Shown here: positions 2,670 through 36,181 of the stretch, in pieces | How the letters are laid out: each line of letters begins with the position of its first letter | How positions within the stretch are numbered: position 1 is the first letter of the stretch | Assembly (NCBI RefSeq): GCF_050920415.1 | Contig: NZ_CP169309.1 | DNA from: Escherichia coli | GTDB taxonomy: Bacteria; Pseudomonadota; Gammaproteobacteria; Enterobacterales; Enterobacteriaceae | DNA: 64,000 bases | Reading direction: 5' to 3' (one strand) | The notes under the pieces: model-generated | Databases searched by the model: none | What the model saw: only the letters and a program-made list of their open reading frames with translations | What the model was told of the DNA's origin: nothing | Made by a program: the position numbers and the translations under genes

Positions 2670-3416
2670 ATGTTGCTTAGCATAATCACCGTTGCGTTTC
2701 GTAACCTCGAAGGGATAGTCAAAACACACGCCTCGCTGGCGCATCTGGCGCAGGCTGACGATATCAGCTTCGAATGGATTGTTGTCGATGGCGGTTCCAA
2801 TGACGGCACCGGTGAGTATCTGGAAAATCTCAATGGTATCTATAACCTACGCTTTGTCAGTGAACCAGATAAGGGCATCTACGACGCCATGAACAAAGGC
2901 ATTGCGATGGCACAAGGCAAGTTTGCGCTGTTTCTCAACTCGGGCGATATTTTTCATCAGGATGCCGCAAATTTTGTCCGTAGGTTAAAAATGCAAAAAG
3001 ATAACGTGATGATCACCGGCGATGCGCTGCTGGATTTTGGCGACGGGCATAAAATTAAACGTCGCGCCAAACCTGGCTGGTATATTTATCACAGCCTGCC
3101 CGCCAGCCATCAGGCGATATTTTTCCCGGTATCCGGCTTGAAAAAATGGCGTTATGACCTGGAATATAAAGTTTCTTCCGATTATGCGCTGGCGGCCAAA
3201 ATGTATAAAGCCGGTTATGCATTTAAAAAACTCAATGGCCTGGTGTCTGAATTTTCTATGGGTGGGGTATCTACCACCAATAATATGGAATTGTGTGCTG
3301 ACGCGAAAAAAGTCCAACGACAAATATTACATGTGCCTGGCTTCTGGGCTGAATTATCCTGGCATTTACGCCAGCGCACGACGGGTAAGACCAAAGCCTT
3401 ATATAACAAAGTCTGA
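2670..3416 (+). CDS. wcaE: Colanic acid biosynthesis glycosyltransferase WcaE (GT2 family)
   Basis: 248-aa ORF with GT2-like N-terminus ([10 protein letters not shown]...); gene order. Confidence 0.88.
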
Positions 3417-3431
3417 ATATAAGGAATACCA

Positions 3432-3980
3432 ATGCAAGATTTAAGCGGTTTCTCGGTGCCGAAAGGGTTCCGGGGCGGCAACTCTATTAAAGTGCAATTG
3501 TGGTGGGCAGTACAGGCAACATTATTTGCCTGGTCGCCACAAGTATTGTATCGCTGGCGGGCATTTTTATTACGTTTATTCGGCGCAAAAATAGGAAAAA
3601 ACGTAGTTATTCGTCCGTCAGTAAAAATTACCTATCCGTGGAAATTAACCTTAGGTGATTACGCGTGGGTCGGCGATGACGTCAATTTATATACCCTCGG
3701 TGAAATAACCATTGGCGCACATTCGGTGATATCGCAAAAAAGTTATTTATGCACCGGGAGCCACGACCATGCAAGTCGACATTTCACCATAAACGCCACG
3801 CCCATTGTGATTGGCGAGAAATGCTGGCTGGCAACCGATGTTTTTGTTGCTCCTGGCGTCACGATCGGCGACGGCACCGTCGTGGGTGCGCGAAGCAGTG
3901 TTTTTAAATCGCTTCCGGCAAATAGAGTTTGCCGGGGGAATCCCGCAGTGGTGATACGCGAACGCGTTGAAACTGAATAA
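3432..3980 (+). CDS. wcaF: Colanic acid biosynthesis acetyltransferase WcaF
   Basis: 182-aa ORF with left-handed beta-helix hexapeptide repeats (GDGTVVGARSSVF...); gene order. Confidence 0.88.
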   Translation: MQDLSGFSVPKGFRGGNSIKVQLWWAVQATLFAWSPQVLYRWRAFLLRLFGAKIGKNVVIRPSVKITYPWKLTLGDYAWVGDDVNLYTLGEITIGAHSVISQKSYLCTGSHDHASRHFTINATPIVIGEKCWLATDVFVAPGVTIGDGTVVGARSSVFKSLPANRVCRGNPAVVIRERVETE

Positions 3981-4006
3981 ATTCAAAAAATACAGAGGAA
4001 TAAGAC

Positions 4007-5128
4007 ATGTCAAAAGTCGCTCTCATCACCGGTGTAACCGGACAAGACGGTTCTTACCTGGCAGAGTTTCTGCTGGAAAAAGGTTACGAGGTGCATGGTA
4101 TTAAGCGTCGTGCATCGTCATTCAACACCGAGCGCGTGGATCACATTTATCAGGATCCGCATACCTGTAACCCGAAATTCCATCTGCATTATGGCGACCT
4201 GAGTGATACCTCCAACCTGACGCGTATTTTGCGTGAAGTGCAGCCGGATGAAGTGTACAACCTGGGCGCAATGAGCCACGTTGCGGTTTCTTTTGAGTCA
4301 CCGGAATATACCGCAGACGTTGATGCGATGGGCACACTGCGTCTGCTGGAGGCGATCCGCTTCCTTGGTCTGGAAAAGAAAACCCGTTTCTATCAGGCTT
4401 CCACTTCTGAACTGTACGGTCTGGTGCAGGAAATTCCGCAGAAAGAAACCACGCCGTTCTATCCGCGATCTCCATATGCGGTCGCCAAACTGTATGCCTA
4501 CTGGATCACCGTTAACTACCGCGAATCCTACGGCATGTACGCTTGTAACGGCATTCTCTTTAACCATGAATCCCCACGCCGTGGCGAAACCTTCGTGACC
4601 CGCAAAATCACCCGCGCAATCGCCAATATCGCTCAAGGGCTGGAGTCGTGCCTGTACCTCGGCAATATGGATTCCCTGCGTGACTGGGGCCACGCCAAAG
4701 ACTACGTAAAAATGCAGTGGATGATGCTGCAACAGGAACAACCGGAAGATTTCGTTATTGCCACCGGCGTTCAGTACTCCGTGCGTCAGTTCGTGGAAAT
4801 GGCGGCGGCACAACTGGGCATCAAACTGCGCTTTGAAGGCACGGGTGTTGAAGAGAAGGGCATTGTGGTTTCCGTCACCGGGCATGACGCGCCGGGCGTT
4901 AAACCGGGTGATGTGATTATCGCCGTTGACCCGCGCTACTTCCGTCCGGCTGAAGTTGAAACGCTGCTCGGTGACCCGACCAAAGCGCACGAAAAACTGG
5001 GCTGGAAACCGGAAATCACCCTCAGAGAGATGGTGTCTGAAATGGTGGCTAATGACCTCGAAGCGGCGAAAAAACACTCTCTGCTGAAATCTCACGGCTA
5101 CGACGTGGCGATCGCGCTGGAGTCATAA
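4007..5128 (+). CDS. gmd: GDP-mannose 4,6-dehydratase
   Basis: 373-aa [34 protein letters not shown]... Rossmann GxxGxxG; canonical Gmd. Confidence 0.95.
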
Positions 5129-5130
5129 GC

Positions 5131-6096
5131 ATGAGTAAACAACGTATTTTTATCGCTGGCCATCGCGGGATGGTCGGTTCTGCCATCAAGCGACAGCTCG
5201 AACAGCGCGGTGATGTGGAACTGGTATTACGCACCCGCGACGAACTGAACCTGCTGGACAGCCGCGCGGTGCATGATTTCTTTGCCAGCGAGCGCATTGA
5301 CCAGGTCTATCTGGCGGCGGCGAAAGTGGGCGGGATTGTCGCCAACAACACGTATCCGGCGGATTTCATCTACCAGAATATGATGATTGAGAGCAACATC
5401 ATTCACGCTGCGCATCAGAACGACGTGAACAAACTGCTGTTTCTCGGATCGTCCTGCATCTACCCAAAACTGGCAAAACAGCCGATGGCAGAAGGCGAGC
5501 TGTTACAGGGCACGCTGGAGCCGACCAACGAGCCATACGCCATTGCCAAAATCGCCGGGATCAAACTGTGCGAATCTTACAACCGCCAGTATGGACGCGA
5601 TTACCGCTCTGTCATGCCGACCAACCTGTACGGGCTGCACGACAACTTCCATCCGAATAATTCGCATGTGATCCCCGCATTGCTGCGCCGCTTCCACGAG
5701 GCGACGGCACAGAATGCACCGGACGTGGTGGTATGGGGCAGCGGTACGCCGATGCGCGAATTTCTGCATGTCGATGATATGGCGGCGGCAAGCATTCATG
5801 TCATGGAGCTGGCGCACGAAGTCTGGCTGGAGAACACCCAGCCGATGCTGTCGCACATTAACGTCGGCACGGGTGTTGACTGCACTATCCGCGAGCTGGC
5901 GCAAACCATCGCCAAAGTGGTGGGTTACAAAGGCCGGGTGGTTTTTGATGCCAGTAAACCGGATGGCACACCGCGCAAACTGCTGGATGTGACGCGCCTG
6001 CATCAGCTTGGCTGGTATCACGAAATCTCACTGGAAGCGGGGCTTGCCAGCACTTACCAGTGGTTCCTTGAGAATCAAGACCGCTTTCGGGGGTAA
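5131..6096 (+). CDS. fcl: GDP-L-fucose synthase (GDP-4-keto-6-deoxymannose 3,5-epimerase/4-reductase)
   Basis: 321-aa [22 protein letters not shown]...; immediately follows gmd. Confidence 0.95.
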
Positions 6097-6578
6097 TGAT
6101 GTTTTTACGTCAGGAAGACTTTGCCACGGTAGTGCGCTCCACTCCGCTTGTCTCTCTCGACTTTATTGTCGAGAACAGCCGCGGCGAGTTTCTGCTTGGC
6201 AAAAGAACCAACCGCCCGGCACAGGGTTACTGGTTTGTGCCGGGAGGGCGCGTGCAGAAGGACGAAACGCTGGAAGCCGCATTTGAGCGGTTGACGATGG
6301 CGGAACTGGGGCTGCGTCTGCCGATAACAGCAGGCCAGTTTTACGGTGTCTGGCAGCACTTTTATGACGATAACTTCTCCGGCACGGATTTCACCACGCA
6401 CTATGTGGTGCTCGGTTTTCGCTTCAGAGTAGCGGAAGAAGAACTGTTACTGCCGGATGAGCAGCATGACGATTACCGCTGGCTGACGCCGGACGCACTG
6501 CTCGCCAGTGACAATGTTCACCCTAACAGCCGCGCCTATTTTCTCGCTGAGAAGCGTGCCGGAGTACCCGGATTATGA
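6096..6578 (+). CDS. gmm: GDP-mannose mannosyl hydrolase (Nudix)
   Basis: 160-aa ORF with Nudix-like sequence; start overlaps the fcl stop; gene order. Confidence 0.9.
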
Positions 6579-7798
6579 AAATACTGGTCTACGGCATTAA
6601 CTACTCGCCGGAGTTAACCGGCATCGGCAAATACACCGGCGAGATGGTGGAATGGCTTGCGGCACAAGGTCATGAGGTGCGGGTCATTACCGCACCGCCT
6701 TACTACCCGCAGTGGCAGGTGGGCGAGAACTATTCCGCCTGGCGGTACAAACGAGAAGAGGGGGCCGCCACGGTGTGGCGCTGCCCGCTGTACGTGCCAA
6801 AACAGCCGAGCACCCTGAAACGCCTGTTGCATCTCGGCAGTTTTGCCGTCAGCAGTTTTTTCCCGTTGATGGCGCAACGTCGCTGGAAGCCGGATCGCAT
6901 TATCGGCGTAGTGCCAACGCTGTTTTGCACGCCGGGAATGCGCCTGCTGGCGAAACTCTCTGGTGCGCGTACCGTGCTGCATATTCAGGATTACGAAGTA
7001 GATGCCATGCTGGGGCTGGGGCTTGCCGGAAAAGGCAAAGGCGGCAAAGTGGCACAGCTGGCGACAGCCTTCGAACGTAGCGGACTGCATAACGTCGATA
7101 ACGTCTCCACGATTTCGCGTTCGATGATGAATAAAGCCATCGAAAAAGGCGTGGCGGCAGAAAACGTCATCTTCTTCCCCAACTGGTCGGAAATCGCCCG
7201 TTTTCAATATGTTGCAGACGCCGATGTTGATGCCCTTCGTAACCAGCTTGGCCTGCCGGATAACAAAAAAATCATTCTTTACTCCGGCAATATTGGTGAA
7301 AAGCAGGGGCTGGAAAACGTTATTGAAGCTGCCGAACGCCTGCGCGATGAACCGCTGATTTTTGCCATTGTCGGGCAGGGCGGCGGCAAAGCGCGGCTGG
7401 AAAAAATGGCGCAGCAGCGCGGACTGCGCAATATGCAATTTTTCCCGCTGCAATCTTATGACGCCTTGCCTGCACTGCTGAAGATGGGCGACTGCCATCT
7501 GGTGGTGCAAAAACGCGGCGCGGCAGATGCCGTATTGCCGTCGAAACTGACCAATATTCTGGCGGTAGGCGGTAACGCGGTAATTACCGCAGAAGCTCAC
7601 ACAGAACTGGGGCAGCTTTGCGAAACCTTCCCAGGAATTGCGGTTTGCGTAGAACCGGAATCGGTCGAGGCGCTGGTGGCGGGGATTCGTCAGGCGCTCC
7701 TGCTACCCAAACACAACACGGTGGCACGTGAATATGCCGAACGCACGCTCGATAAAGAGAACGTGTTACGTCAATTTATACATGATATTCGGGGATAA
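6575..7798 (+). CDS. wcaI: Colanic acid biosynthesis glycosyltransferase WcaI (GT4 family)
   Basis: 407-aa [27 protein letters not shown]...; gene order. Confidence 0.9.
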
Positions 7799-7800
7799 TT

Positions 7801-9237
7801 ATGTCGCAGTCGAAACTCTATCCAGTTGTGATGGCAGGTGGCTCCGGTAGCCGCTTATGGCCGCTTTCCCGCGTACTTTATCCCAAGCAGTTTTTATGCC
7901 TGAAAGGCGATCTTACCATGCTGCAAACCACCATCTGCCGCCTGAACGGCGTGGAGTGCGAAAGCCCGGTGGTGATTTGCAATGAGCAGCACCGCTTTAT
8001 TGTCGCGGAACAGCTGCGTCAACTGAACAAACTCACCGAGAACATTATTCTCGAACCGGCAGGGCGTAACACTGCACCTGCCATTGCGTTGGCGGCGCTG
8101 GCGGCAAAACGTCATAGTCCGGACAGCGATCCGTTAATGTTGGTCCTGGCGGCAGATCATGTGATTGCCGACGAAGACGCGTTCCGCGCCGCCGTGCGTA
8201 ATGCCATGCCGTATGCCGAAGCGGGCAAGCTGGTGACCTTCGGCATTGTGCCGGATCTACCTGAAACCGGATATGGCTATATTCGTCGCGGTGAAGTGTC
8301 GGCGGGTGAGCAGGATACGGTGGCCTTTGAAGTGGCGCAGTTTGTCGAAAAACCGAATCTGGAAACCGCTCAGGCCTATGTGGCAAGCGGCGAATATTAC
8401 TGGAACAGCGGTATGTTCCTGTTCCGTGCCGGACGTTATCTCGAAGAACTGAAAAAATATCGCCCGGATATTCTCGACGCCTGCGAAAAAGCGATGAGCG
8501 CCGTCGATCCGGATCTCGATTTTATTCGTGTGGATGAAGAGGCGTTTCTTGCCTGCCCGGAAGAGTCGGTGGATTACGCGGTTATGGAACGTACGGCAGA
8601 TGCCGTTGTGGTACCGATGGATGCGGGGTGGAGCGATGTCGGTTCCTGGTCCTCTTTATGGGAGATCAGCGCCCACACCGCGGAAGGCAACGTTTGCCAC
8701 GGCGATGTGATTAATCACAAAACCGAAAACAGCTACGTGTATGCCGAATCTGGCCTGGTCACCACCGTCGGGGTGAAAGATCTGGTAGTGGTGCAGACCA
8801 AAGACGCGGTGCTGATTGCCGACCGTAACGCGGTGCAGGATGTGAAAAAAGTGGTCGAGCAGATCAAAGCCGATGGTCGCCATGAGCATCGGGTGCATCG
8901 CGAAGTGTATCGCCCGTGGGGCAAATATGACTCTATCGACGCGGGCGACCGCTACCAGGTGAAACGTATCACCGTGAAACCGGGCGAGGGCTTGTCGGTA
9001 CAAATGCACCATCACCGCGCGGAACACTGGGTAGTGGTCGCGGGAACGGCAAAAGTCACCATTGACGGTGATATCAAACTGCTTGGTGAAAACGAGTCCA
9101 TTTATATTCCGCTGGGGGCAAAACACTGCCTGGAAAACCCGGGGAAAATTCCCCTCGATTTAATTGAAGTGCGCTCCGGCTCTTATCTCGAAGAGGATGA
9201 TGTGGTGCGCTTCGCGGATCGCTACGGACGGGTGTAG
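7801..9237 (+). CDS. cpsB: Mannose-1-phosphate guanylyltransferase (GDP-mannose pyrophosphorylase)
   Basis: 478-aa [27 protein letters not shown]... with a C-terminal cupin domain. Confidence 0.95.
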
Positions 9238-23951: not shown

Positions 23952-25213
23952 TGAAAAAATTTCTTCAGGTAACTATATTATCCGCTATCTATACATTCAT
24001 TAAAATGATTGCGGGTTTTATCATCGGTAAGGTAGTAGCAATTTATACAGGGCCATCAGGGGTAGCAATGCTTGGCCAAGTGCAAAGTTTAATCACAATA
24101 GTTGCAGGTACTACTTCTGCACCTGTAAGCACCGGTCTTGTTCGATATACTGCGGAAAATTGGCAAGAAGGACAGGAAGCATGCGCGCCATGGTGGCGCG
24201 CATGCTTAAGGGTTACTCTGTTTTTATTCTTGCTTATTATTCCCGTTGTTATTTTATTGTCGAAAAATATTAGCGAGTTACTTTTTAGCGATGGACAATA
24301 CACATGGTTAATCATTTTCGCATGTTGTATATTGCCATTCTCCATTTTAAATACATTGATCGCTTCAGTTTTAAATGGTCAACAATTCTATAAGCAATAT
24401 ATATTGGTTGGGATGTTTTCTGTATTCATTTCTACTATGTTTATGATTTTGTTGATTGTAGCTTATAATCTTAAAGGTGCATTGATTGCCACGGCTATAA
24501 ATAGTGCTATTGCTGGTCTTGTATTAGTTTTATTTTGTCTCAATAAATCTTGGTTTAGATTTAAATATTGGTGGGGTAAAACGGATAAAGACAAAATTAT
24601 AAAAATTATTCATTATACTCTGATGGCTTTGGTTTCTGTTATCTCCATGCCTACAGCATTGATGTGTATTAGAAAAATATTGATTGCTAAAACTGGTTGG
24701 GAGGATGCAGGGCAATGGCAGGCCGTATGGAAGATATCTGAGGTCTATCTTGGTGTTGTGACAATTGCTTTGTCAACATATTTCTTACCAAGATTGACAA
24801 TTATAAAAACAAGTTTCCTTATAAAAAAAGAGGTAAATAGTACTATATTATACATAGTATCTATTACTTCATTCATGGCGTTGAGTATCTATTTATTCCG
24901 CGATTTGGTAATAACAGTTTTATTTACTGAACAGTTTCGCTCAGCTCGTGAATTATTTTTGTTACAACTCGTAGGGGATGTAATAAAAATTGCTGGTTTT
25001 CTTTATGCATACCCTCTTCAAAGTCAGGGGCATACTAAACTATTCATCAGTTCAGAAGTGATTTTTTCTATGCTCTTTATCGTTACCACCTATATTTTTG
25101 TTGTAAATTATGGAGTACATGGTGCTAACATAAGTTATGTCATTACATATAGTTTATATTTTGTGTTTGCATTTGTGTTTACTAATTTTATTAATGTCAG
25201 AAGAATTAATTAA
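23951..25213 (+). CDS. wzx: O-antigen flippase Wzx
   Basis: 420-aa, about 12-TM, AT-rich membrane protein immediately after the sugar-nucleotide genes. Confidence 0.8.
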   Translation: MKKFLQVTILSAIYTFIKMIAGFIIGKVVAIYTGPSGVAMLGQVQSLITIVAGTTSAPVSTGLVRYTAENWQEGQEACAPWWRACLRVTLFLFLLIIPVVILLSKNISELLFSDGQYTWLIIFACCILPFSILNTLIASVLNGQQFYKQYILVGMFSVFISTMFMILLIVAYNLKGALIATAINSAIAGLVLVLFCLNKSWFRFKYWWGKTDKDKIIKIIHYTLMALVSVISMPTALMCIRKILIAKTGWEDAGQWQAVWKISEVYLGVVTIALSTYFLPRLTIIKTSFLIKKEVNSTILYIVSITSFMALSIYLFRDLVITVLFTEQFRSARELFLLQLVGDVIKIAGFLYAYPLQSQGHTKLFISSEVIFSMLFIVTTYIFVVNYGVHGANISYVITYSLYFVFAFVFTNFINVRRIN

Positions 25214-25222
25214 AAACAGAGG

Positions 25223-26278
25223 TTGAAATTGAAAATAATTATACCTGTCTTAGGATTTGGCAGGGCTGGTGGTGAAAGAGTTCTTTCTAAGCTGGCAACT
25301 GAATTGATGAATTATGGACATGATGTAAGTTTTGTTGTTCCAGATAATAGAACTAATCCATATTATGCTACCACAGCAAAAATCGTCACGAGTAAATCTA
25401 GTCAAAACCGTGTAAAAATATTGAGAATCATTAAAAATTACTATAATCTGTGGCGTAAATGCATAGAATTAAATCCTGATGCTGTAGTTGCTAGTTTTCA
25501 TTTGACTGCCTATCTTGTCGCATTATTACCAATCACCCGTCGTAAGAAATATTATTATATTCAGGCGTATGAAGTTAATTTTTTTGATAATATAATATGG
25601 AAATTAATAGCGGGTTTAACATATTATTTACCGCTTAAAAAAATACTAAATAGTCCTAATTTGCTTCCTCATAAACATGATGATTTTATAGGAGTAGTTC
25701 CTGCAGGAGTAGATTTAAACGTTTTCTATCCGAAACCATCAAATAGGTTATTAAATGGTCACACATCAATAGGGATTATTGGTAGAAAAGAGAAGCACAA
25801 AGGAACTAGCGAAATTATTTCAGTATTGTGTTCACTGGAAAATAAAGTTGGAATTATAATTAATATTGCGATCTATCTTGAAGAAGTTGATAAGGAGCGT
25901 TTAATTGCTGCCGGGTTTCAGGTTAATTTTTTTCCGATTACTTCTGATTTAGAATTGGCATCTTTTTATCGAAGCAATGACATCATGATTGCAGCTGGGT
26001 TAATTGAAGATGGCGCTTTCCATTATCCTTGTGCTGAATCAATGGCTTGTGGTTGTCTTGTTATTTCAAATTATGCGCCACTTACTGAAACTAACAGTGT
26101 ACTTAAATTAGTCAAGTTTGATGCTTGCAAACTTGGTAAAGCAATTAATCTTTGTCTCAATCTTGACCTAGAAGAAAAAAGCAAAGAAATCCAATCTAAT
26201 ATTTCTGTGTTGAATAAATATGACTGGAAAATTGTTGGTGAAACTTTCAATAGTTTATTGTTAGATGCAAATAAATAG
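25223..26278 (+). CDS. O-antigen glycosyltransferase (GT1/GT4-like)
   Basis: About 350-aa ORF with non-ATG start (TTG at 25223 or 25229; AGAGG RBS at 25217-25221 favours 25229); N-terminus KIIIPVLGFGRAGGERV... typical of GT4-like transferases. Confidence 0.7.
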   Translation: MKLKIIIPVLGFGRAGGERVLSKLATELMNYGHDVSFVVPDNRTNPYYATTAKIVTSKSSQNRVKILRIIKNYYNLWRKCIELNPDAVVASFHLTAYLVALLPITRRKKYYYIQAYEVNFFDNIIWKLIAGLTYYLPLKKILNSPNLLPHKHDDFIGVVPAGVDLNVFYPKPSNRLLNGHTSIGIIGRKEKHKGTSEIISVLCSLENKVGIIINIAIYLEEVDKERLIAAGFQVNFFPITSDLELASFYRSNDIMIAAGLIEDGAFHYPCAESMACGCLVISNYAPLTETNSVLKLVKFDACKLGKAINLCLNLDLEEKSKEIQSNISVLNKYDWKIVGETFNSLLLDANK

Positions 26279-26298
26279 TATACGTTGATGGGGAAAAT

Positions 26299-26856
26299 AT
26301 GAATATTGTTAAAACTGATATTCCAGATCTGATCGTTCTTGAACCAAAAGTGTTTAGTGATGAACGCGGCTTTTTTATGGAGAGTTATAATCAGATTGAA
26401 TTTGAGAAGACAATAGGAAGGCACGTAAATTTTGTTCAGGATAATCATTCAAAATCTAGTAAAGGCGTACTACGTGGGTTACATTATCAATTAGCACCGT
26501 ATGCACAGGCTAAATTAGTTCGATGTGTTGTAGGTCAGGTATTTGATGTTGCTGTTGATCTTAGAAAAAATTCACCAACGTTCAAAAAATGGTTTGGAAT
26601 AACCCTTTCCGCAGAAAATAAACGACAATTATGGATACCTGAAGGATTTGCTCATGGTTTCTTGGTGACCAGTGATGAAGCTGAGTTCATTTATAAAACA
26701 ACGAACTACTATGCTCCTGGTCATCAGCAAGCAATTATTTACAATGATCCTATTTTAAACATCGATTGGCCTTTCTGCAGTAGTGCTCTGTCATTATCGC
26801 AAAAAGATCAAGAAGCAAAATTATTTTCAGAATTATTGGACAGTGAACTGTTCTAA
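26299..26856 (+). CDS. rmlC: dTDP-4-dehydrorhamnose 3,5-epimerase
   Basis: 185-aa ORF MNIVKTDIPDLIVLEPKVFSDERGFFMESYN...; canonical RmlC cupin; separated from rmlBDA. Confidence 0.92.
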   Translation: MNIVKTDIPDLIVLEPKVFSDERGFFMESYNQIEFEKTIGRHVNFVQDNHSKSSKGVLRGLHYQLAPYAQAKLVRCVVGQVFDVAVDLRKNSPTFKKWFGITLSAENKRQLWIPEGFAHGFLVTSDEAEFIYKTTNYYAPGHQQAIIYNDPILNIDWPFCSSALSLSQKDQEAKLFSELLDSELF

Positions 26857-26923
26857 TAAAGTGTGCCACCTTATCCGTCTGAAGGATAGGTGGTTGCTTA
26901 TATTTTTTGAGTATGTTTGTATA

Positions 26924-27886
26924 ATGACAGAAAATAGTCCGAAATATAAACACGATAAAAGCTTAATAAGTTTTATCTACTTATTTTTTATATTTACACT
27001 TATTGTAGGCTTCATTATCGCAAATACCCAGTTTTTGGGGCGAAGTAGAGACTATGATAATTATATACAGATCTTTTCTGGTGAAGAAGGGGAGGGGGTT
27101 CTTGAATTATTTTATCGCGGATTGATGTTAATAACGACCAGCTATGAAATTATCATTTTTATAATTTTAACATGTTCTTTTTTTATAAAGGCAAGGTTTC
27201 TTGCTAACTATTCGCGTAATTTTTCAGGCTTGACCTTATTCTTTGTTTATTATGCAAGCGTTGCACTTTGGGTTTTAGATTATACTCAATTCAGAAATGG
27301 TCTATGTATTTCCATTTTAATGTTTTCCGTATACTATTTATTTATAAATAAACCGACTTATTTTTATTTCTCGCTATTATGTGCAATTGCAACTCATTGG
27401 TCTGCTTTGCCTTTTTTGCTTTTATATCCTTTTGTCTATTCAAAAAAAATAAGACACCTTGGTTATTTTTGTTTCAGTATTCTTGTTTTGATTGCGATCT
27501 CAGGAGAAGGAAAAGAGATCATTTCTTTTATAAGAAATTTTGGAGTGGGACAAAAAATAGGAAACGAAGCTGGTGTAAATTTAATAAATTCATTATCCCT
27601 TACCGCTATTTTCTGGTTTGTTATTAGTTACATATCAAGCATTGGAAATGAAAGGAGAAATTTAAGACTTTTCTTTTGTTATGGTGTCATGCAATACGTG
27701 ACTTTTAGCCTTTTCTCTCTACCTGTTATGGCTTTCCGTATTTTGGAAATGTATTTTTTCCTTATGTTAACCATTGGGGTGTTTATTAAGCAAAAAAAGA
27801 ATTATTATTTTGTTTTTTGCAAAGTGTTAATTTTATTGTATCTAACATACTATTATCATATGGTTTTTGGAGTGATTAATGTGTAA
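26924..27886 (+). CDS. wzy: O-antigen polymerase Wzy
   Basis: Listed ORF starts at 26783; ATG at 26924 (MTENSPKYKHDKSLISFIYLFF...) gives about 320 aa; very AT-rich, multi-TM, with a large predicted loop. Confidence 0.7.
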   Translation: MTENSPKYKHDKSLISFIYLFFIFTLIVGFIIANTQFLGRSRDYDNYIQIFSGEEGEGVLELFYRGLMLITTSYEIIIFIILTCSFFIKARFLANYSRNFSGLTLFFVYYASVALWVLDYTQFRNGLCISILMFSVYYLFINKPTYFYFSLLCAIATHWSALPFLLLYPFVYSKKIRHLGYFCFSILVLIAISGEGKEIISFIRNFGVGQKIGNEAGVNLINSLSLTAIFWFVISYISSIGNERRNLRLFFCYGVMQYVTFSLFSLPVMAFRILEMYFFLMLTIGVFIKQKKNYYFVFCKVLILLYLTYYYHMVFGVINV

Positions 27887-28766
27887 GGCTAAGGTGTTGG
27901 CTATAATTGTTACTTACAACCCGGAAATTATTCGTTTGACGGAATGTATTAACTCTTTAGCCCCACAAGTTGAGAGAATAATTCTTGTAGATAATGGCTC
28001 AAATAATAGTCATTTGATAAAAAATATCATTATTAATAACCTTGAAATTATTTTGCTTTCGGAAAACAAAGGCATTGCATTTGCTCAGAACCATTGTGTT
28101 AAGAAGGGTCTGGAAGCAAAAGAGTTTGACTATTTATTTTTCTCAGATCAGGATACTTGCTTTCCTAGCGATGTTATTGAAAAACTTAAGAGTACATTTA
28201 CGAAAAATAATAAAAAAGGTAAAAATGTTGCTTGTGCTTCTCCTTTTTTTAAAGACCATCGTTCAAATTATATGCATCCGTCAGTCAGCCTAAATATTTT
28301 TACGAGTACAAAAGTTATATGTAGTGAAGTAGACGATGATCTTTATCCCTCGCATGTTATTGCTTCTGGGATGTTAATGTCTCGCGAGGCATGGCGCGTC
28401 GTCGGACCATTTTGTGAAAAACTCTTTATAGACTGGGTTGATACAGAATGGTGTTGGCGTGCATTAGCTAATAGTATGATTATTGTTCAGACACCATCAG
28501 TCATCATTTCTCATGAACTTGGGTATGGGCAGAAAATTTTTGCTGGTCGATCTGTTACAATACATAATTCTTTCAGAAATTTTTATAAAATACGTAATGC
28601 AATATACTTAATGCTGCATTCAAATTATAGCTTCAAGTATCGTTATCATGCTTTTTTTCATGCGACAAAGAATATTGTATTTGAAATTTTATATTCGAAA
28701 GAAAAATTAAATTCACTGAAGGTTTGTTTTAAAGCTGTACGTGATGGTATGTTCAATAATTTTTAA
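27879..28766 (+). CDS. O-antigen glycosyltransferase, GT2 family (probable rhamnosyltransferase)
   Basis: 295-aa ORF; N-terminus LAIIVTYNPE...VDNGSNNS and a DxD-like region (FFSDQDT) typical of GT2. Confidence 0.72.
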   Translation: MCKAKVLAIIVTYNPEIIRLTECINSLAPQVERIILVDNGSNNSHLIKNIIINNLEIILLSENKGIAFAQNHCVKKGLEAKEFDYLFFSDQDTCFPSDVIEKLKSTFTKNNKKGKNVACASPFFKDHRSNYMHPSVSLNIFTSTKVICSEVDDDLYPSHVIASGMLMSREAWRVVGPFCEKLFIDWVDTEWCWRALANSMIIVQTPSVIISHELGYGQKIFAGRSVTIHNSFRNFYKIRNAIYLMLHSNYSFKYRYHAFFHATKNIVFEILYSKEKLNSLKVCFKAVRDGMFNNF

Positions 28767-28796
28767 TACAAAAATAGTTAGGCTCAAGGTGTTTAA

Positions 28797-29873
28797 ATGG
28801 AAGAAAATAATATGAAGACGGTCGCTGTAGTTGGCACAGTGGGTGTTCCTGCTTGTTATGGTGGGTTTGAATCACTTGTTCAGAATCTAATTGATTATCA
28901 ATCTGATGGTATACAATATCAGATATTTTGCTCTTCAAAAAAATATAATAAAAAATTAAAAAATTATAAAAATGCAGAATTAATCTATTTGCCGATAAAT
29001 GCCAATGGCGTCTCTAGCATAATTTATGACATTATGTGTTTAATTATTTGTTTATTCAAAAGGCCAGATGTTGTTTTAATATTGGGGGTATCTGGTTGTT
29101 TATTTCTACCAATTTATAAACTATTTTCAAAATCAAAGATCATTGTCAACATCGATGGGCTTGAATGGCGTAGAAATAAATGGGGAACGTTTGCTAAGAA
29201 ATTTCTCAAAATATCTGAGGCGATATCTATTAGAATAGCTGATATTATCATTTCAGATAATCAAGCAATAGCTGATTATGTGGAAAATAAGTACAATAAA
29301 AAAAGCGTAGTTATAGCTTATGGGGGAGATCATGCTACTAATCTTAGTACACCGATAGACGATGATCAAAAAAAAGATGGTTATTATTTGGGGCTTTGTA
29401 GGATAGAGCCTGAGAATAATATAGAAATGATTTTGAATGCCTTCATTAATACAGATAAAAAAATTAAATTTATGGGTAATTGGGATAATAGCGAGTATGG
29501 GCGCCAGCTAAAAAAATATTATTCAAACTATCCAAATATCACACTACTAGAACCTAACTATAATATCGAAGAACTTTATAAACTAAGAAAAAATTGCCTT
29601 GCATACATTCATGGACACTCGGCTGGTGGAACAAACCCTTCTTTAGTTGAAGCGATGCATTTTAATATTCCTATTTTTGCTTTCGATTGTGACTTTAATC
29701 GTTACACAACTAATAATTTAGCTCATTACTTTAATGATTCTGAACAACTGACCTCATTAGCAGACAGTTTGTCTTTTGGAAATCTTAAATGTCAAGTATT
29801 AGATTTAAAAAAATATGCTGAAGATATGTATAACTGGAGGCATATAGCTGCTATGTATGAATCTATTTATTAA
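28797..29873 (+). CDS. O-antigen glycosyltransferase (GT1-like)
   Basis: 358-aa ORF (alternative start MKTVAVVG at 28812); GT1-like C-terminal motifs; last gene of the O-unit block. Confidence 0.68.
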   Translation: MEENNMKTVAVVGTVGVPACYGGFESLVQNLIDYQSDGIQYQIFCSSKKYNKKLKNYKNAELIYLPINANGVSSIIYDIMCLIICLFKRPDVVLILGVSGCLFLPIYKLFSKSKIIVNIDGLEWRRNKWGTFAKKFLKISEAISIRIADIIISDNQAIADYVENKYNKKSVVIAYGGDHATNLSTPIDDDQKKDGYYLGLCRIEPENNIEMILNAFINTDKKIKFMGNWDNSEYGRQLKKYYSNYPNITLLEPNYNIEELYKLRKNCLAYIHGHSAGGTNPSLVEAMHFNIPIFAFDCDFNRYTTNNLAHYFNDSEQLTSLADSLSFGNLKCQVLDLKKYAEDMYNWRHIAAMYESIY

Positions 29874-30039
29874 ACGCATTAACAATAATATAATTGACCT
29901 TATATAGCTATCAGAGTAAAAATGTAACGCTGATTTTTTTGTTAAATGATGCGCATTATATATTTAATGATTAAAATACTCTTGATCAAATAAAACTATT
30001 TAATTAATAATGTAAAATTTCATTATGCTATTTAAGATG

Positions 30040-30108
30040 TGAAAAATAACTTAAATAAATGATGGGATATATTTATATTATCCCGGTTATAGACAAGCCC
30101 AGGGAAAG
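30040..30108 (+). repeat. Degenerate duplicate of the 5' end of the H-repeat (ISAs1) transposase gene
   Basis: 30057-30108 (aaatgatgggatatatttatattatcccggttatagacaagcccagggaaag) is about 85% identical to 30257-30308 inside the transposase ORF; the ATG equivalent is mutated. Confidence 0.6.
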
Positions 30109-30244
30109 ATCATCAGAAGTACACTTTTTGTACTAAATAATTCGCATTTTATGTTTAAAAATATGAGATATTCCTCATTACCTGAAGCTGTTTTTTATTG
30201 CTTATACATGATCAAATACTCCTTACATAATTAAGGAGAACAAA

Positions 30245-31381
30245 ATGGAACTTAAAAAATTGATGGAACATATTTCTATTATCCCCGATTACAGACAAGC
30301 CTGGAAAGTGGAACATAAATTATCGGATATTCTACTGTTGACTATTTGTGCCGTCATTTCTGGTGCAGAAGGCTGGGAAGATATAGAGGATTTTGGAGAA
30401 ACACATCTCGATTTTTTGAAGCAATATGGTGATTTTGAAAATGGTATTCCTGTTCACGATACCATTGCCAGAGTTGTATCCTGTATCAGTCCTGCAAAAT
30501 TTCACGAGTGCTTTATTAACTGGATGCGAGATTGCCATACTTCAGATGATAAAGACGTCATCGCAATTGATGGAAAAACACTCCGGCATTCTTATGACAA
30601 GAGTCGCCGTAAGGGAGCGATTCATGTCATTAGTGCGTTCTCAACAATGCACAGTCTGGTCATCGGACAGATCAAGACGGATGAGAAATCCAATGAGATT
30701 ACAGCCATCCCTGAACTTCTTAACATGTTGGATATTAAAGGGAAAATTATCACAACTGATGCGATGGGTTGCCAGAAAGATATTGCAGAGAAGATACAAA
30801 AACAGGGAGGTGATTATTTATTCGCTGTAAAAGGAAATCAGCGTCGGCTTAATAAAGCCTTTGAAGAAAAATTCCCACTGAAAGAATTAAATAATCCAGA
30901 GCATGACAGTTATGCAATTAGTGAAAAGAGTCACGGCAGAGAAGATATCCGTCTTCATATTGTTTGCGATGACCCTGATGAACTTATTGATTTCACGTTT
31001 GAATGGAAAGGACTGAAAAAATTATGCGTGGCAGTCTCCTTTCGCTCAATAATAGCAGAGCAAAAGAAAGAGCCCGAAATGATGGTCAGATATTATATCA
31101 GTTCTGCTGATTTAACCGCTGAGAAGTTTGCGACAGCGATTTGAAATCACTGGCACGTGGAGAATAAGCTGCACTGGCGTCTGGACGTGGTAATGAATGA
31201 AGACGATTGTAAAATAAGAAGAGGAAATGCAGCAGAATTATTTTCTGGGATACGGCACATTGCTATTAATATTTTGACGAATGATAAGGTATTCAAGACA
31301 GGATTAAGACGTAAGATGCGAAAAGCAGCCATGGACAGAAACTATCTCGCGTCAGTCCTTGCGGGGAGCGGGCTTTACTAG
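30245..31381 (+). mobile_element. ISAs1-family (H-repeat-associated) transposase gene interrupted by a single in-frame TGA (pseudogene)
   Basis: 299-aa ORF (30245-31144) and 74-aa ORF (31157-31381) are in the same frame, separated only by TGA at 31142-31144; the combined about 378-aa product has the ISAs1 motif ...[21 protein letters not shown]... with the stop at a conserved Arg position. Confidence 0.8.
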
Positions 31382-31453
31382 TCCTTCCTCGCTCAGTGAC
31401 AGAATATTGAATGAATAGCATTAAAATTATTAAATAATATGGTTTAATTCGAC

Positions 31454-33081
31454 ATGAACTTTAAGAATATAATTAGAATAATACTACCTTTTTTTATTTT
31501 CTTGAGTATTTTACTTTACTCAGGAAGGGCGGATAGTGTTTTGTTATTTACTATCGAATACACACTTGCAAGTATGGCAATCTTTCTGATAAAAAGAAAG
31601 TTTATAAGCAATATCTTGTGGGGGATTTATCTCTCAATTTTAGGTGTACAGGCAGCATCGCTATTTAGTTCAGGACAATATTTGATGCCTCTTGCCTTGT
31701 CGAATGCTGCAGAAGTTGAATCGCTAGGCATTGGCGAGGTAATCAAGGTTTTTTCTATTTTTATTTTATTTGTTATAGTTTCATTCGTTACGATGCCTTC
31801 TGGTGCTCTAGTCGGCCGTATTAAATATTATAAATTTAATTTTTTCTGTATAGTATTATTGCTTGTGTGTTCTTTCATAAGCACGGGACCGGTATATGCT
31901 TTTTATGAAACAGCAAAATTGTACTATTTACAGCAAACCTTTAAGCCTAGTGAGAAGATCGGTGATGCCGGGAAATCTTTTTTAAAAACAAGTGTTTTTA
32001 TTAACCCTCTACAGAATAACAACAACTTCAAAGGGCGTAATGTTATTGTAATCTTTGCTGAGGGATTTTCATCGGAGATTATTGGTAATTCAAAAATGGC
32101 GCATTTTCCAATTACGCCTAATTTAGATAAGTTATCTACTGAAGCACTAAGTTTTAAAAATTATTATAACCATACAGCAGTAACCTTTCGAGGTTTAAGA
32201 GGCCAGTTAACTTCTGGCTATCAATTTCGTGATGGGTTAACTGATGCTGGTACTGGTATTGCACAATTATCTAACGTAGAAATTAATAATATTTATCTTC
32301 ATCGTCAAACATCTTTGCCGAATATATTGAAAGAGTATGGCTATAAAAGTTATTTTATAGCGTCTACAGAAAAAATAGCCCACTCAACACTATGTTGAAA
32401 ACGCTTAATTTTGATAAAGTTCTTGGTATGGGAGATTTTATTGGTTATCAACGCGACAGAATGACTGATAAGCAAACATTTAATGCACTGCAATATTTTT
32501 TACGTTCTCAAGAAAATAAAAACGAACGCTTTTTTATTGGTGTGTACCCATCTGGTACTCATCATGGTCAAGATAGTCCAAATGAAAAATATTTTGATGG
32601 TAGCAATCCTCTCTACAATAAATTCTATAACTATGATTTTCAGTTGGGGAAGTTTGTTGATTTTTTTCGGCGCAGTTCATTTTATGGCAATACGTTGTTG
32701 ATAATTACATCGGATCATTCTACATTTCCTTCGACAGAATATAAGAAATCATTTAACAGCGATTCTCGTTATTTTGTGGACAAAATACCATTTCTGATCA
32801 TTGGGAAAAATATTACGCCTGAAGTTTTAGATGCAGGAGGTGAAAATTCTTTAAGTTTCGCGCCAACAATATTGCACATGTTAGGGATTCAGTATTCAAT
32901 GAATTATTTTTTGGGGTGTTCTCTTTTTGATAAGACGTGCACATCACCATTCTCACATCTTTCTGCTATTGGTAGTGATTATTTCAATACAGGCAAAGAA
33001 AATCATGTTGAACTAATTCAAAATAATAGTGGTAATGAATTAATAAAATTAGCCGAACGTTTTTATAACATTAGTGGCTAA
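31454..33081 (+). pseudogene. Sulfatase/alkaline-phosphatase-superfamily membrane enzyme (LtaS/phosphoglycerol- or phosphoethanolamine-transferase-like), frameshifted
   Basis: 314-aa ORF (31454-32398) has N-terminal TM helices then a sulfatase-like domain (NVIVIFAEGFSSE...); the domain continues in another frame as a 229-aa ORF (32392-33081; ...LLIITSDHSTFPS...); frame change lies near an A6 run at 32370-32375. Confidence 0.6.
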
Positions 33082-33215
33082 ATATAAAAATGTACAAGTT
33101 ACAAGCAATTTCCTAATTAGGAAATATATGACTGTAAAAGAAGATATAAATTAAGCTATTCTTTATCTTCAATAAGCCGCAACCCCGCGGTGATCACCCC
33201 TGACAGGAGTAAACA

Positions 33216-34622
33216 ATGTCAAAGCAACAGATTGGCGTAGTCGGTATGGCAGTGATGGGGCGCAACCTTGCGCTCAACATCGAAAGCCGTGGTTATACCG
33301 TCTCTATTTTCAACCGTTCCCGTGAGAAGACGGAAGAAGTGATTGCCGAAAATCCAGGCAAAAAACTGGTTCCTTACTATACGGTGAAAGAGTTTGTTGA
33401 ATCTCTGGAAACGCCTCGTCGCATCCTGTTAATGGTGAAAGCAGGTGCAGGCACGGATGCTGCTATTGATTCCCTCAAGCCATACCTCGATAAAGGTGAC
33501 ATCATCATTGATGGTGGTAATACCTTCTTCCAGGACACCATTCGTCGTAACCGTGAGCTTTCTGCCGAAGGCTTTAACTTTATCGGTACCGGTGTCTCCG
33601 GTGGTGAAGAAGGTGCGCTGAAAGGTCCTTCCATTATGCCTGGTGGCCAGAAAGAAGCCTATGAACTGGTTGCACCGATCCTGACCAAAATCGCCGCCGT
33701 TGCTGAAGACGGCGAGCCATGCGTTACCTATATTGGTGCCGATGGTGCTGGCCACTATGTGAAGATGGTTCATAACGGTATTGAATACGGCGATATGCAG
33801 CTGATTGCTGAAGCCTATTCACTGCTTAAAGGTGGCCTGAGCCTCACCAACGAAGAACTGGCTCAGACCTTTACCGAGTGGAATAACGGTGAACTAAGCA
33901 GCTACCTGATCGACATCACCAAAGATATCTTCACCAAAAAAGATGAAGACGGTAACTACCTGGTTGATGTGATTTTGGATGAAGCAGCAAACAAAGGTAC
34001 AGGCAAATGGACCAGCCAGAGTGCGCTAGATCTCGGCGAACCGCTGTCGCTGATTACCGAGTCTGTGTTTGCACGTTATATCTCTTCTCTGAAAGATCAG
34101 CGTGTTGCCGCATCTAAAGTTCTCTCTGGCCCGCAAGGACAGCCAGCAGGCGACAAGGCTGAGTTCATCGAAAAAGTTCGCCGTGCGCTGTATCTTGGCA
34201 AAATCGTTTCTTACGCTCAGGGCTTCTCTCAGCTGCGTGCTGCGTCTGAAGAGTACAACTGGGATCTGAACTACGGCGAAATCGCGAAGATTTTCCGTGC
34301 TGGCTGCATCATTCGTGCGCAGTTCCTGCAGAAAATCACCGATGCTTATGCCGAAAATCCGCAGATCGCTAACCTGTTGCTGGCTCCTTACTTCAAGCAA
34401 ATTGCCGATGACTACCAGCAGGCGCTGCGTGATGTCGTTGCTTATGCAGTACAAAATGGTATCCCGGTTCCGACCTTCGCTGCTGCGGTTGCCTATTATG
34501 ATAGCTACCGTGCCGCTGTTTTGCCTGCGAACCTGATCCAGGCACAGCGTGACTATTTCGGTGCGCATACTTATAAGCGCATTGATAAAGAAGGTGTGTT
34601 CCATACCGAATGGCTGGATTAA
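33216..34622 (+). CDS. gnd: 6-phosphogluconate dehydrogenase, decarboxylating
   Basis: 468-aa [33 protein letters not shown]...; canonical Gnd; 3' flank of the O-antigen locus. Confidence 0.97.
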
Positions 34623-34647
34623 TCTGATTTAACCAACAATAAATTGA

Positions 34648-34679
34648 AGCCCGGCGTGTATTGCGCCGGTTTTTTTTTG
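34648..34679 (+). terminator. Rho-independent terminator downstream of gnd
   Basis: GC-rich hairpin gaagcccggcgtgtattgcgccgg followed by a T9 run. Confidence 0.7.
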
Positions 34680-34859
34680 CCGATTATCTTATAGACTAAA
34701 TTTCACTGCTTAATATTAACTTAATAAATATCAGCTATTCTTATAAAGAAAATCTGAATTGTTTTTTGTTGCGTTGACCATCTGACAACGTAGCGTTAAA
34801 ACTTTTAGCTCTTATCAGGATGCTAAAAACATCATGATTCACAGTTAAGTTAATTCTGA

Positions 34860-36035
<1,176 letters not shown>

Positions 36036-36181
36036 CATCCTGTTATCAGGGCGATTTTCGCCCTGATTCTCTCATGTTCCCTTTGTAATAATTCATTATT
36101 TTTATCATTTATCCTATAGCATTCATGGCGATTATCGCTAAACTATGGCGACTTAAAATTATTTCGTCCGTTAGGGTAATG

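Follow-up and report, generated by a model that had tools for sequence, protein, structure and literature searches.

A relic H-repeat left end abutting an ISEc1-like element in an Escherichia coli O2/O50 O-antigen gene cluster: probable trace of a nested insertion

A diverged repeat in front of an H-repeat transposase

How did a diverged copy of the 5′ end of an H-repeat come to lie immediately upstream of a full-length H-repeat in an E. coli O-antigen gene cluster? The stretch of DNA analysed here, 64 kb in length and referred to below as the window, contains a gene cluster of the O2/O50 family that extends from galF to gnd. The clusters of O2 and O50 are nearly identical (PMC5293828, PMC7685785). 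The region at 29874-31450 shares 100% identity with two complete genomes and 97.2% identity with classical O2 strains, e.g. NGF1 and NC101. The window and these two strains share the same gene order, namely a DUF1972 glycosyltransferase gene, an ISAs1-family transposase gene, wekS (LTA-synthase-like) and gnd, and the H-repeat site is the spacer between the glycosyltransferase gene and wekS. The last gene of the cluster, wekS (31454-33081, LTA-synthase/sulfatase-like), is split into ORFs at 31454-32398 and 32392-33081. Compared with the O2 strain NGF1, in which the 1629-bp gene is intact, one base has been lost from an A run at about 32370 (A7 to A6), and PGAP annotates two sulfatase-like CDSs at wekS in a window-identical genome. 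Upstream, an fdtC-like acyltransferase gene is present as two partial pseudogene fragments according to PGAP (4512-4958 in L001, the window-identical genome; 511-957 in L002, the locus of NGF1), a fragmentation common to both.

The initial annotation described 30040-30108 as a diverged duplicate of 30240-30308. Our analysis confirmed that the repeat is real. A repeat search paired 30048-30084 with 30249-30285 (86% identity) and 30082-30099 with 30284-30301 (89%), with a 1-bp indel offsetting the pair. In a gapped local alignment of 30048-30109 with 30249-30308, 52 of the 62 columns were identical and the score was 66, compared with 23.6 ± 2.8 (maximum 39) in 500 shuffles. When the entire 64-kb window was searched by BLAST, the 64-bp segment had a single secondary match (57 bits, E=2e-11), the next being at 26.5 bits. 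The homology is also longer than this segment, as shown by an alignment of 29936-30099 to 30125-30301 with 71% identity in 181 columns (score 136; shuffles 49.5 ± 6.8). The two copies are direct repeats approximately 201 bp apart.

While the repeat itself stood, its interval was wrong at both ends. On the 3′ side, positions 30100-30108 (CAGGGAAAG) belong to the left inverted repeat of the intact element, and the part related by descent ends at 30099; CAGGGAAAG does resemble TGGAAAG at 30302-30308, but not through common descent. The repeat proper, by descent, is thus 30048-30099 versus 30249-30301, with about 84% identity (82-85%). On the 5′ side the limit was drawn too short, and homology continues upstream to 29912. 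Counting a degenerate terminal repeat at that position, the relic extends over 29912-30099 (188 bp). The possibility that the segment is part of a known ISAs1 terminal inverted repeat, which the initial annotation named as a ground for refutation, holds for 30100-30108 only. The segment as a whole was ruled out as an inverted repeat of the intact element, since all of it but 30100-30108 lies outside 30100-31391.

The relic and the full-length element beside it

The relic lies on the plus strand and corresponds by homology to positions 1-201, at the 5′ end, of an older ISAs1-family H-repeat, which we call element A. It comprises a degenerate left terminal repeat at 29912-29922 (CAGAGTAAAAA, identical to the canonical CAGGGAAAGAT at 7 of 11 positions in our alignments), a 5′ UTR, and transposase codons 2-19 at 30048-30099. 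The coding part lacks an ATG, contains an in-frame TAA at 30055-30057, and has lost 1 bp from a C run at 30082-30084. Neither strand of the relic holds an ORF of at least 30 amino acids, no match to Rfam was obtained, and no promoter or terminator signal rose above shuffled expectation. The relic is ordinary decayed IS debris, and we found no support for a functional role.

The relic's last base abuts the left inverted repeat (CAGGGAAAGAT, 30100-30110) of element B, a full-length ISEc1-like H-repeat with a body of 1292 bp on the same strand (30100-31391). These ends come from alignment with six other copies (CAGGGAAAGAT on the left, AATCTTGCCCTG on the right), and the matches of thousands of other genomic copies start at window positions 30098-30101. 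Element B is approximately 95% identical to yhhI-type and Rhs-associated ISEc1. Its left end and length fit the ISAs1 family, whose members have CAGGG ends and measure about 1.2-1.5 kb (PMC11946415). It resembles the ISEc1/H-rpt elements of Rhs loci (yhhI, ydcC) in its CAGGG-type left end, its 378-codon ISAs1 transposase and its 1292 bp, whereas the relic, at 64% identity in the UTR, is far more diverged than any dispersed E. coli copy. The ISAs1-family transposase gene (30245-31381, plus strand) is a pseudogene. Codons 2-19, the counterpart of the relic's, were placed at 30249-30301 by local alignment. An in-frame TGA occurs at 31142-31144, where O2 strains have CGA (Arg); PGAP reports an "internal stop", while the NGF1 copy is annotated as intact. 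The two halves match NCBIfam NF033564 (transpos_ISAs1) with E=3.9e-99 over residues 29-299 and E=5e-17 past the stop, and the Pfam domains are DDE_Tnp_1_assoc (PF13808) and DDE_Tnp_1 (PF01609).

Besides CAGGG ends, the ISAs1 family signature includes a 10-bp direct repeat (PMC11946415). A search for such a target duplication at the ends of element B was negative: the flanks read TAGACAAGCC and CTCAGTGACA, and no 10-bp copy of TAGACAAGCC occurs 3′ of the right end. Later recombination would explain the missing duplication. The right end is degenerate as well (reverse complement CGAGGAAGGACTAGT versus CAGGGCAAGATTACG), and the divergence is concentrated in the last 15 bp (31377-31391, plus strand), where ACTAGTCCTTCCTCG replaces the canonical CGTAATCTTGCCCTG with 7 mismatches in 15 positions, compared with 51 in 1277 for the element body (Fisher p=1.2e-6). 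Judging from this pattern, the tip is probably the decayed right inverted repeat of old element A, kept through recombination. The right tip of the A-type element in the sister lineage is canonical, and the window tip differs from it by 7/15, so assigning the tip to A means that the sister copy must have been converted later by another H-repeat. Alternatively, the tip may simply have mutated. The right flank (31392-31453) was also considered as the place of the rest of the old element and was rejected, as it has no target duplication and aligns with the sister lineage's non-IS flank (about 75-80% identity, estimated by eye in a four-locus alignment); BLAST of this 62-bp flank did not detect it in the locus of WP5-S18-ESBL-07 (L014).

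With respect to the origin of the relic, the closest relative was found at the same site in sister O2/O50 clusters. Strain MS8345 (L013, NZ_CP025401, 4710-7295) carries two complete H-repeats in tandem, of which the second, IS-2 (6015-7295), follows the spacer that is also seen in the window and opens with the identical degenerate end, CAGAGTAAAAA. The relic is 88% identical to IS-2 in the UTR (122/139) and 85% identical in codons 2-19 (45/53); its identity to both canonical ISEc1 and the adjacent element is 64% and 82% in the same parts. This indicates that the relic derives from an older resident element and is not a copy of its neighbor. The earlier suggestion of a remnant of an older H-repeat copy is thus borne out: the relic is collinear with the start of the second, complete H-repeat in those clusters and 88% identical to it there. 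When E. coli genomes were searched with 29874-30099 alone, 62 genomes of the window or O2 type were recovered, together with 74 genomes in which positions 25-226 matched at 87.9% beneath an annotated ISAs1 transposase, and weaker generic ISEc1 matches of about 71%. The relic was found only at the O2/O50 locus.

A parallel at an Rhs locus and a proposed history

The same junction, ACAGACAAGCC followed directly by CAGGGAAAGATC, also occurs elsewhere: about 30 other E. coli genomes and three metagenome contigs have it at an Rhs locus, where the partial copy is nearly identical to ISEc1. In total, 33 E. coli genomes carry the junction and two of these are of the window type. Five Rhs-type loci were opened, and a single upstream Rhs context was common to all five. 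The most informative is the Rhs/yafV locus of STEC1575 (L012, NZ_CP116044, 3828-6431), in which a complete 1291-bp ISEc1 is nested in another ISEc1. Positions 1-201 of the host are followed by the guest, by a repetition of the 10 bp CAGACAAGCC, and by the host from position 202 to its own right end, so that the host sums to full length (201 + 1090 = 1291 bp). This nested insertion is a true transposition that duplicated 10 bp of its target. The counterpart of the duplicated target in element B is at 30292-30301 on the plus strand, as located by alignment.

Other strains with the Rhs junction have lost the 3′ part of the host and represent a resolved form. In one of these (L003, about 2990-4493), the retained element carries guest variants at 511-1066 and host variants at 1229-1289, and this order of variants shows that it arose when the guest recombined with the 3′ part of the host that it had displaced. 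A stack of end fragments precedes the Rhs copy: the 18-bp CAGGGAGAGATTATCGTG, then the 12-bp CAGGGAAAGATC, then CAGGGAAAGATCATC. Successive H-repeat insertions thus seem to have hit the same left end at this locus. A scan for the junction AGACAAGCCCAGGGAAAGATC in one genome per species (GTDB) gave no matches, and a scan of metagenomes gave three, all in the same Rhs context, plus one unrelated chance match; a third independent junction context was found in neither the GTDB species set nor the metagenomes. Plasmid copies of ISEc1 were also checked for fresh target duplications and none had any, many of these "plasmid" records being pieces of chromosome.

Recombination can resolve nested IS insertions into a solo end and a chimeric copy. 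Our locus shares with that pattern a 5′ fragment of the host, a complete guest and a lost host 3′ part, and the corresponding intermediate is seen at the Rhs locus. Based on the homology of the relic and its extent, its abutment on the inverted repeat of element B, the A-type element of the sister lineage and the divergence of the right tip, all of which are observed directly, we consider it probable that the relic is the fossil left end of A, that an ISEc1-type element B transposed into A, and that recombination then removed A's 3′ part. In this history, a resident element A would have sat between the last glycosyltransferase gene and wekS. Element B would then have transposed into A at positions 192-201 (codons 16-19), which would bring B's CAGGG end against AGACAAGCC. 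Next, B and the displaced 3′ part of A would have formed direct repeats, and homologous recombination between them would have deleted one element length along with the second copy of the 10-bp target duplication. This would leave A's 5′ relic and a chimeric element with the body of B and the decayed right tip of A. Later decay would account for the TGA in the transposase gene and, in classical O2 strains, for a 6-bp deletion at the junction.

For the transposition and recombination steps at the O-antigen locus, we reason by analogy with the Rhs locus, where intermediate and product can both be observed. The end state of the window, with its old 5′ relic, a body approximately 95% canonical, no target duplication and a diverged last 15 bp, is like the resolved form at the Rhs locus, and the decay of the right tip is similar to that of the relic's terminal repeat. 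No genome was found to carry the intermediate (5′ part of A, B, duplication, 3′ part of A) at the O-antigen locus.

An alternative is that the junction of A and B arose by illegitimate or microhomology recombination, with the internal AAGCC-TGGAAAG of one H-repeat crossing over with CC-CAGGGAAAG, the flank and end of another, at the microhomology CC(T/AG)GGAAAG; in this case the relic would still be an older copy. The element's internal sequence past the junction (CCTGGAAAG, 30300-30308) does resemble its own end preceded by C or CC (CCAGGGAAAG), and most H-repeat copies have C or CC directly before CAGGG. Further, most copies lack target duplications, which indicates that recombination between copies is common. 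However, the identical junction at the Rhs locus has a perfect 10-bp duplication after which the host resumes at the next base, and this is the signature of transposition rather than of a microhomology crossover. In addition, the inverted repeat begins precisely at the join in the window. We therefore regard this alternative as unlikely, though it is the strongest of those considered.

Considerably less probable, and rejected on the relative identities, is a tandem partial duplication, an origin that the initial annotation had also offered. Here slippage or an unequal exchange between sisters would have doubled the first ~200 bp of element B, and the upstream copy would then have decayed. The geometry is indeed head-to-tail, with direct repeats at this spacing and a relic that stops where the full element starts. 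Against this, the UTR of the relic is closer to IS-2, a separate complete element that another lineage carries at this site, than to the adjacent element. The adjacent element is itself approximately 95% identical to dispersed ISEc1 copies. Decay so unequal in two adjacent non-coding copies is implausible. The left ends also differ. Two left-end variants that diverge beyond the first 13 bp, ATCAGAAGTTCAC (yhhI type) and ACGTAACGCTGC, are common among the H-repeats of E. coli and were seen in K-12 and most E. coli genomes (MS8345 offers an example at 4710-4735). The left end of the relic (ATGTAACGCTGA) resembles the ACGTAACGCTGC variant, with which it shares the motif GTAACGCTG; the adjacent element has TCAGAAGTACAC there.

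It is slightly more improbable still that the relic is a retained functional module, serving either as an extra transposase-binding left end by which a longer, 1.48-kb unit could move or as a promoter or regulatory duplication for the transposase gene or wekS. Conservation of the relic between window-type and O2 clusters is 98%, the relic precedes the transposase gene, and weak σ70-like matches occur at 29894-29923 and 29982-30011. However, the surrounding cluster is conserved to the same degree, which indicates no extra constraint, and the 10 promoter-like sites do not exceed the 7.1 ± 2.4 found in shuffles. The degenerate terminal repeat, the transposase pseudogene, the degenerate right end, the lack of an Rfam match and the confinement of the relic to this locus also argue against a function. 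Lastly, chance likeness of AT-rich sequences, conceivable in a region of 22-28% G+C, can be dismissed as next to impossible, given self-alignment scores 12-15 standard deviations above shuffles, a match that is the only secondary one in 64 kb, and collinearity with the 5′ end of a complete element elsewhere.

H-repeat turnover at the O-antigen locus

Having weighed these alternatives, we return to insertion of B into A and subsequent recombination as the probable history, and to how the site differs among genomes. At least four architectures occur between the glycosyltransferase gene and wekS: the window type, the O2 type with a 6-bp deletion, a tandem of IS-1 and A, and a single hybrid. In classical O2 strains, the architecture is that of the window minus the 6 bp CAAGCC at the junction, where AGA is joined to CAGGG instead of AGACAAGCC; the deletion lies at about 8215-8221 of the NGF1 locus (L002) and corresponds to window positions 30094-30099. 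These strains also lack one A at window position ~30165. Since they represent the same architecture with a 6-bp deletion, the window type, which is rare (2 of 5,426 E. coli genomes), keeps the older junction.

In MS8345, IS-1 is a 1291-bp ISEc1 flanked on both sides by a perfect 10-bp duplication, CCTTATATAG. The corresponding sequence in the window is at 29898-29907 (plus strand), in the spacer after the DUF1972 glycosyltransferase gene and 4 bp upstream of A's end. A single hybrid element is found in WP5-S18-ESBL-07 (NZ_AP022159, 6035-7324), with its left part from IS-1 and its right part from IS-2, and is a recombinant of the two. IS-2 is a mosaic as well, with a canonical identity of 58-70% in the first 200 bp, 93-97% at 200-700 and 87-93% beyond. 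The identities fit two origins of IS-2: it could be ancestor A, still intact, or it could have formed by a deletion from one of the two repeats to the other. All H-repeat copies here are mosaics and gene conversion among them is evidently frequent, which blurs the detailed order of events. With regard to the further suggestion that short repeats could mediate local deletions, H-repeat recombination has occurred at this site, as the WP5-S18-ESBL-07 hybrid indicates, and the O2 deletion falls exactly at the junction. However, no deletion between these two particular repeats has been demonstrated, and the idea is plausible but unproven.

The H-repeat site also coincides with a sharp change in the relatedness of two O2/O50 lineages. 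When the window was compared with lineage II (WP5-S18-ESBL-07) over 24000-36040, wzx through the glycosyltransferase genes showed 97.2-98.8% identity, whereas 3′ of the H-repeat the identity was 87.7% for wekS, 90.9% for gnd and 82.8% for ugd, a fall from about 98% to about 88%. This suggests that the segment downstream of the site differs in ancestry from the one upstream, the coincidence of the change with the H-repeat being a correlation only. An H-repeat remnant at an O-antigen recombination junction has been described in Salmonella groups D2/D3 (PMC3715488). The present locus is similar in that an H-repeat or remnant lies within the O-antigen cluster where relatedness changes. It differs in having two H-repeat generations, a relic and a full copy, at one site, and no change of O-unit genes can be attributed to it and no cointegrate-type event has been demonstrated. 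O-antigen clusters are well known to carry H-repeats and remnants of them; our literature search turned up neither this relic nor any nested ISEc1 insertion.

Transposition activity of H-rpt has reportedly not been observed, according to one genome paper (PMC3032704). The two perfect 10-bp duplications (CAGACAAGCC in STEC1575 and CCTTATATAG in MS8345) constitute evidence, at the level of sequence, that ISEc1 does transpose. Target duplications were present in 2 of the 15 full copies examined, and both lie in or beside the left end of another H-repeat. Together with the junction in the window and the stacked end fragments at the Rhs locus, they suggest a preference for left ends. As a tentative proposal, which we think less likely than not to hold in full, ISEc1 does transpose and prefers sites in or just upstream of the left ends of resident H-repeats, with a hot spot at codons 16-19. 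We hypothesize that the hot spot consists of the target CAGACAAGCC followed by the end-like TGGAAAG, and that it was hit independently at the Rhs locus and in the old O2/O50 element. The sample behind this proposal is small (3-4 events) and was gathered by homology to the query. In Frankia, an ISAs1-family element has been reported to insert repeatedly at a single locus (PMC11946415). For the ISAs1 family, we know of no work that establishes targeting of an element's own ends, and to our knowledge its mechanism and target choice are essentially unstudied. Insertion next to sequences resembling its own ends has been described for IS30.

In conclusion, the relic itself matters little, and the synthesis of the O2/O50 antigen is unchanged by it. 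The junction between relic and IS can nevertheless be used as a marker of cluster history, by which the architectures at this site can be told apart, and the switch in identity at the H-repeat site fits the long-standing idea that H-repeats help to assemble O-antigen clusters. The Rhs comparison, in turn, contributes sequence-level evidence of ISEc1 transposition and a hint of self-targeting in the ISAs1 family. If the latter is true, repeated self-insertion and recombination would build "stacks" of left-end relics, and O-antigen and Rhs loci would stay seeded with recombination substrates.
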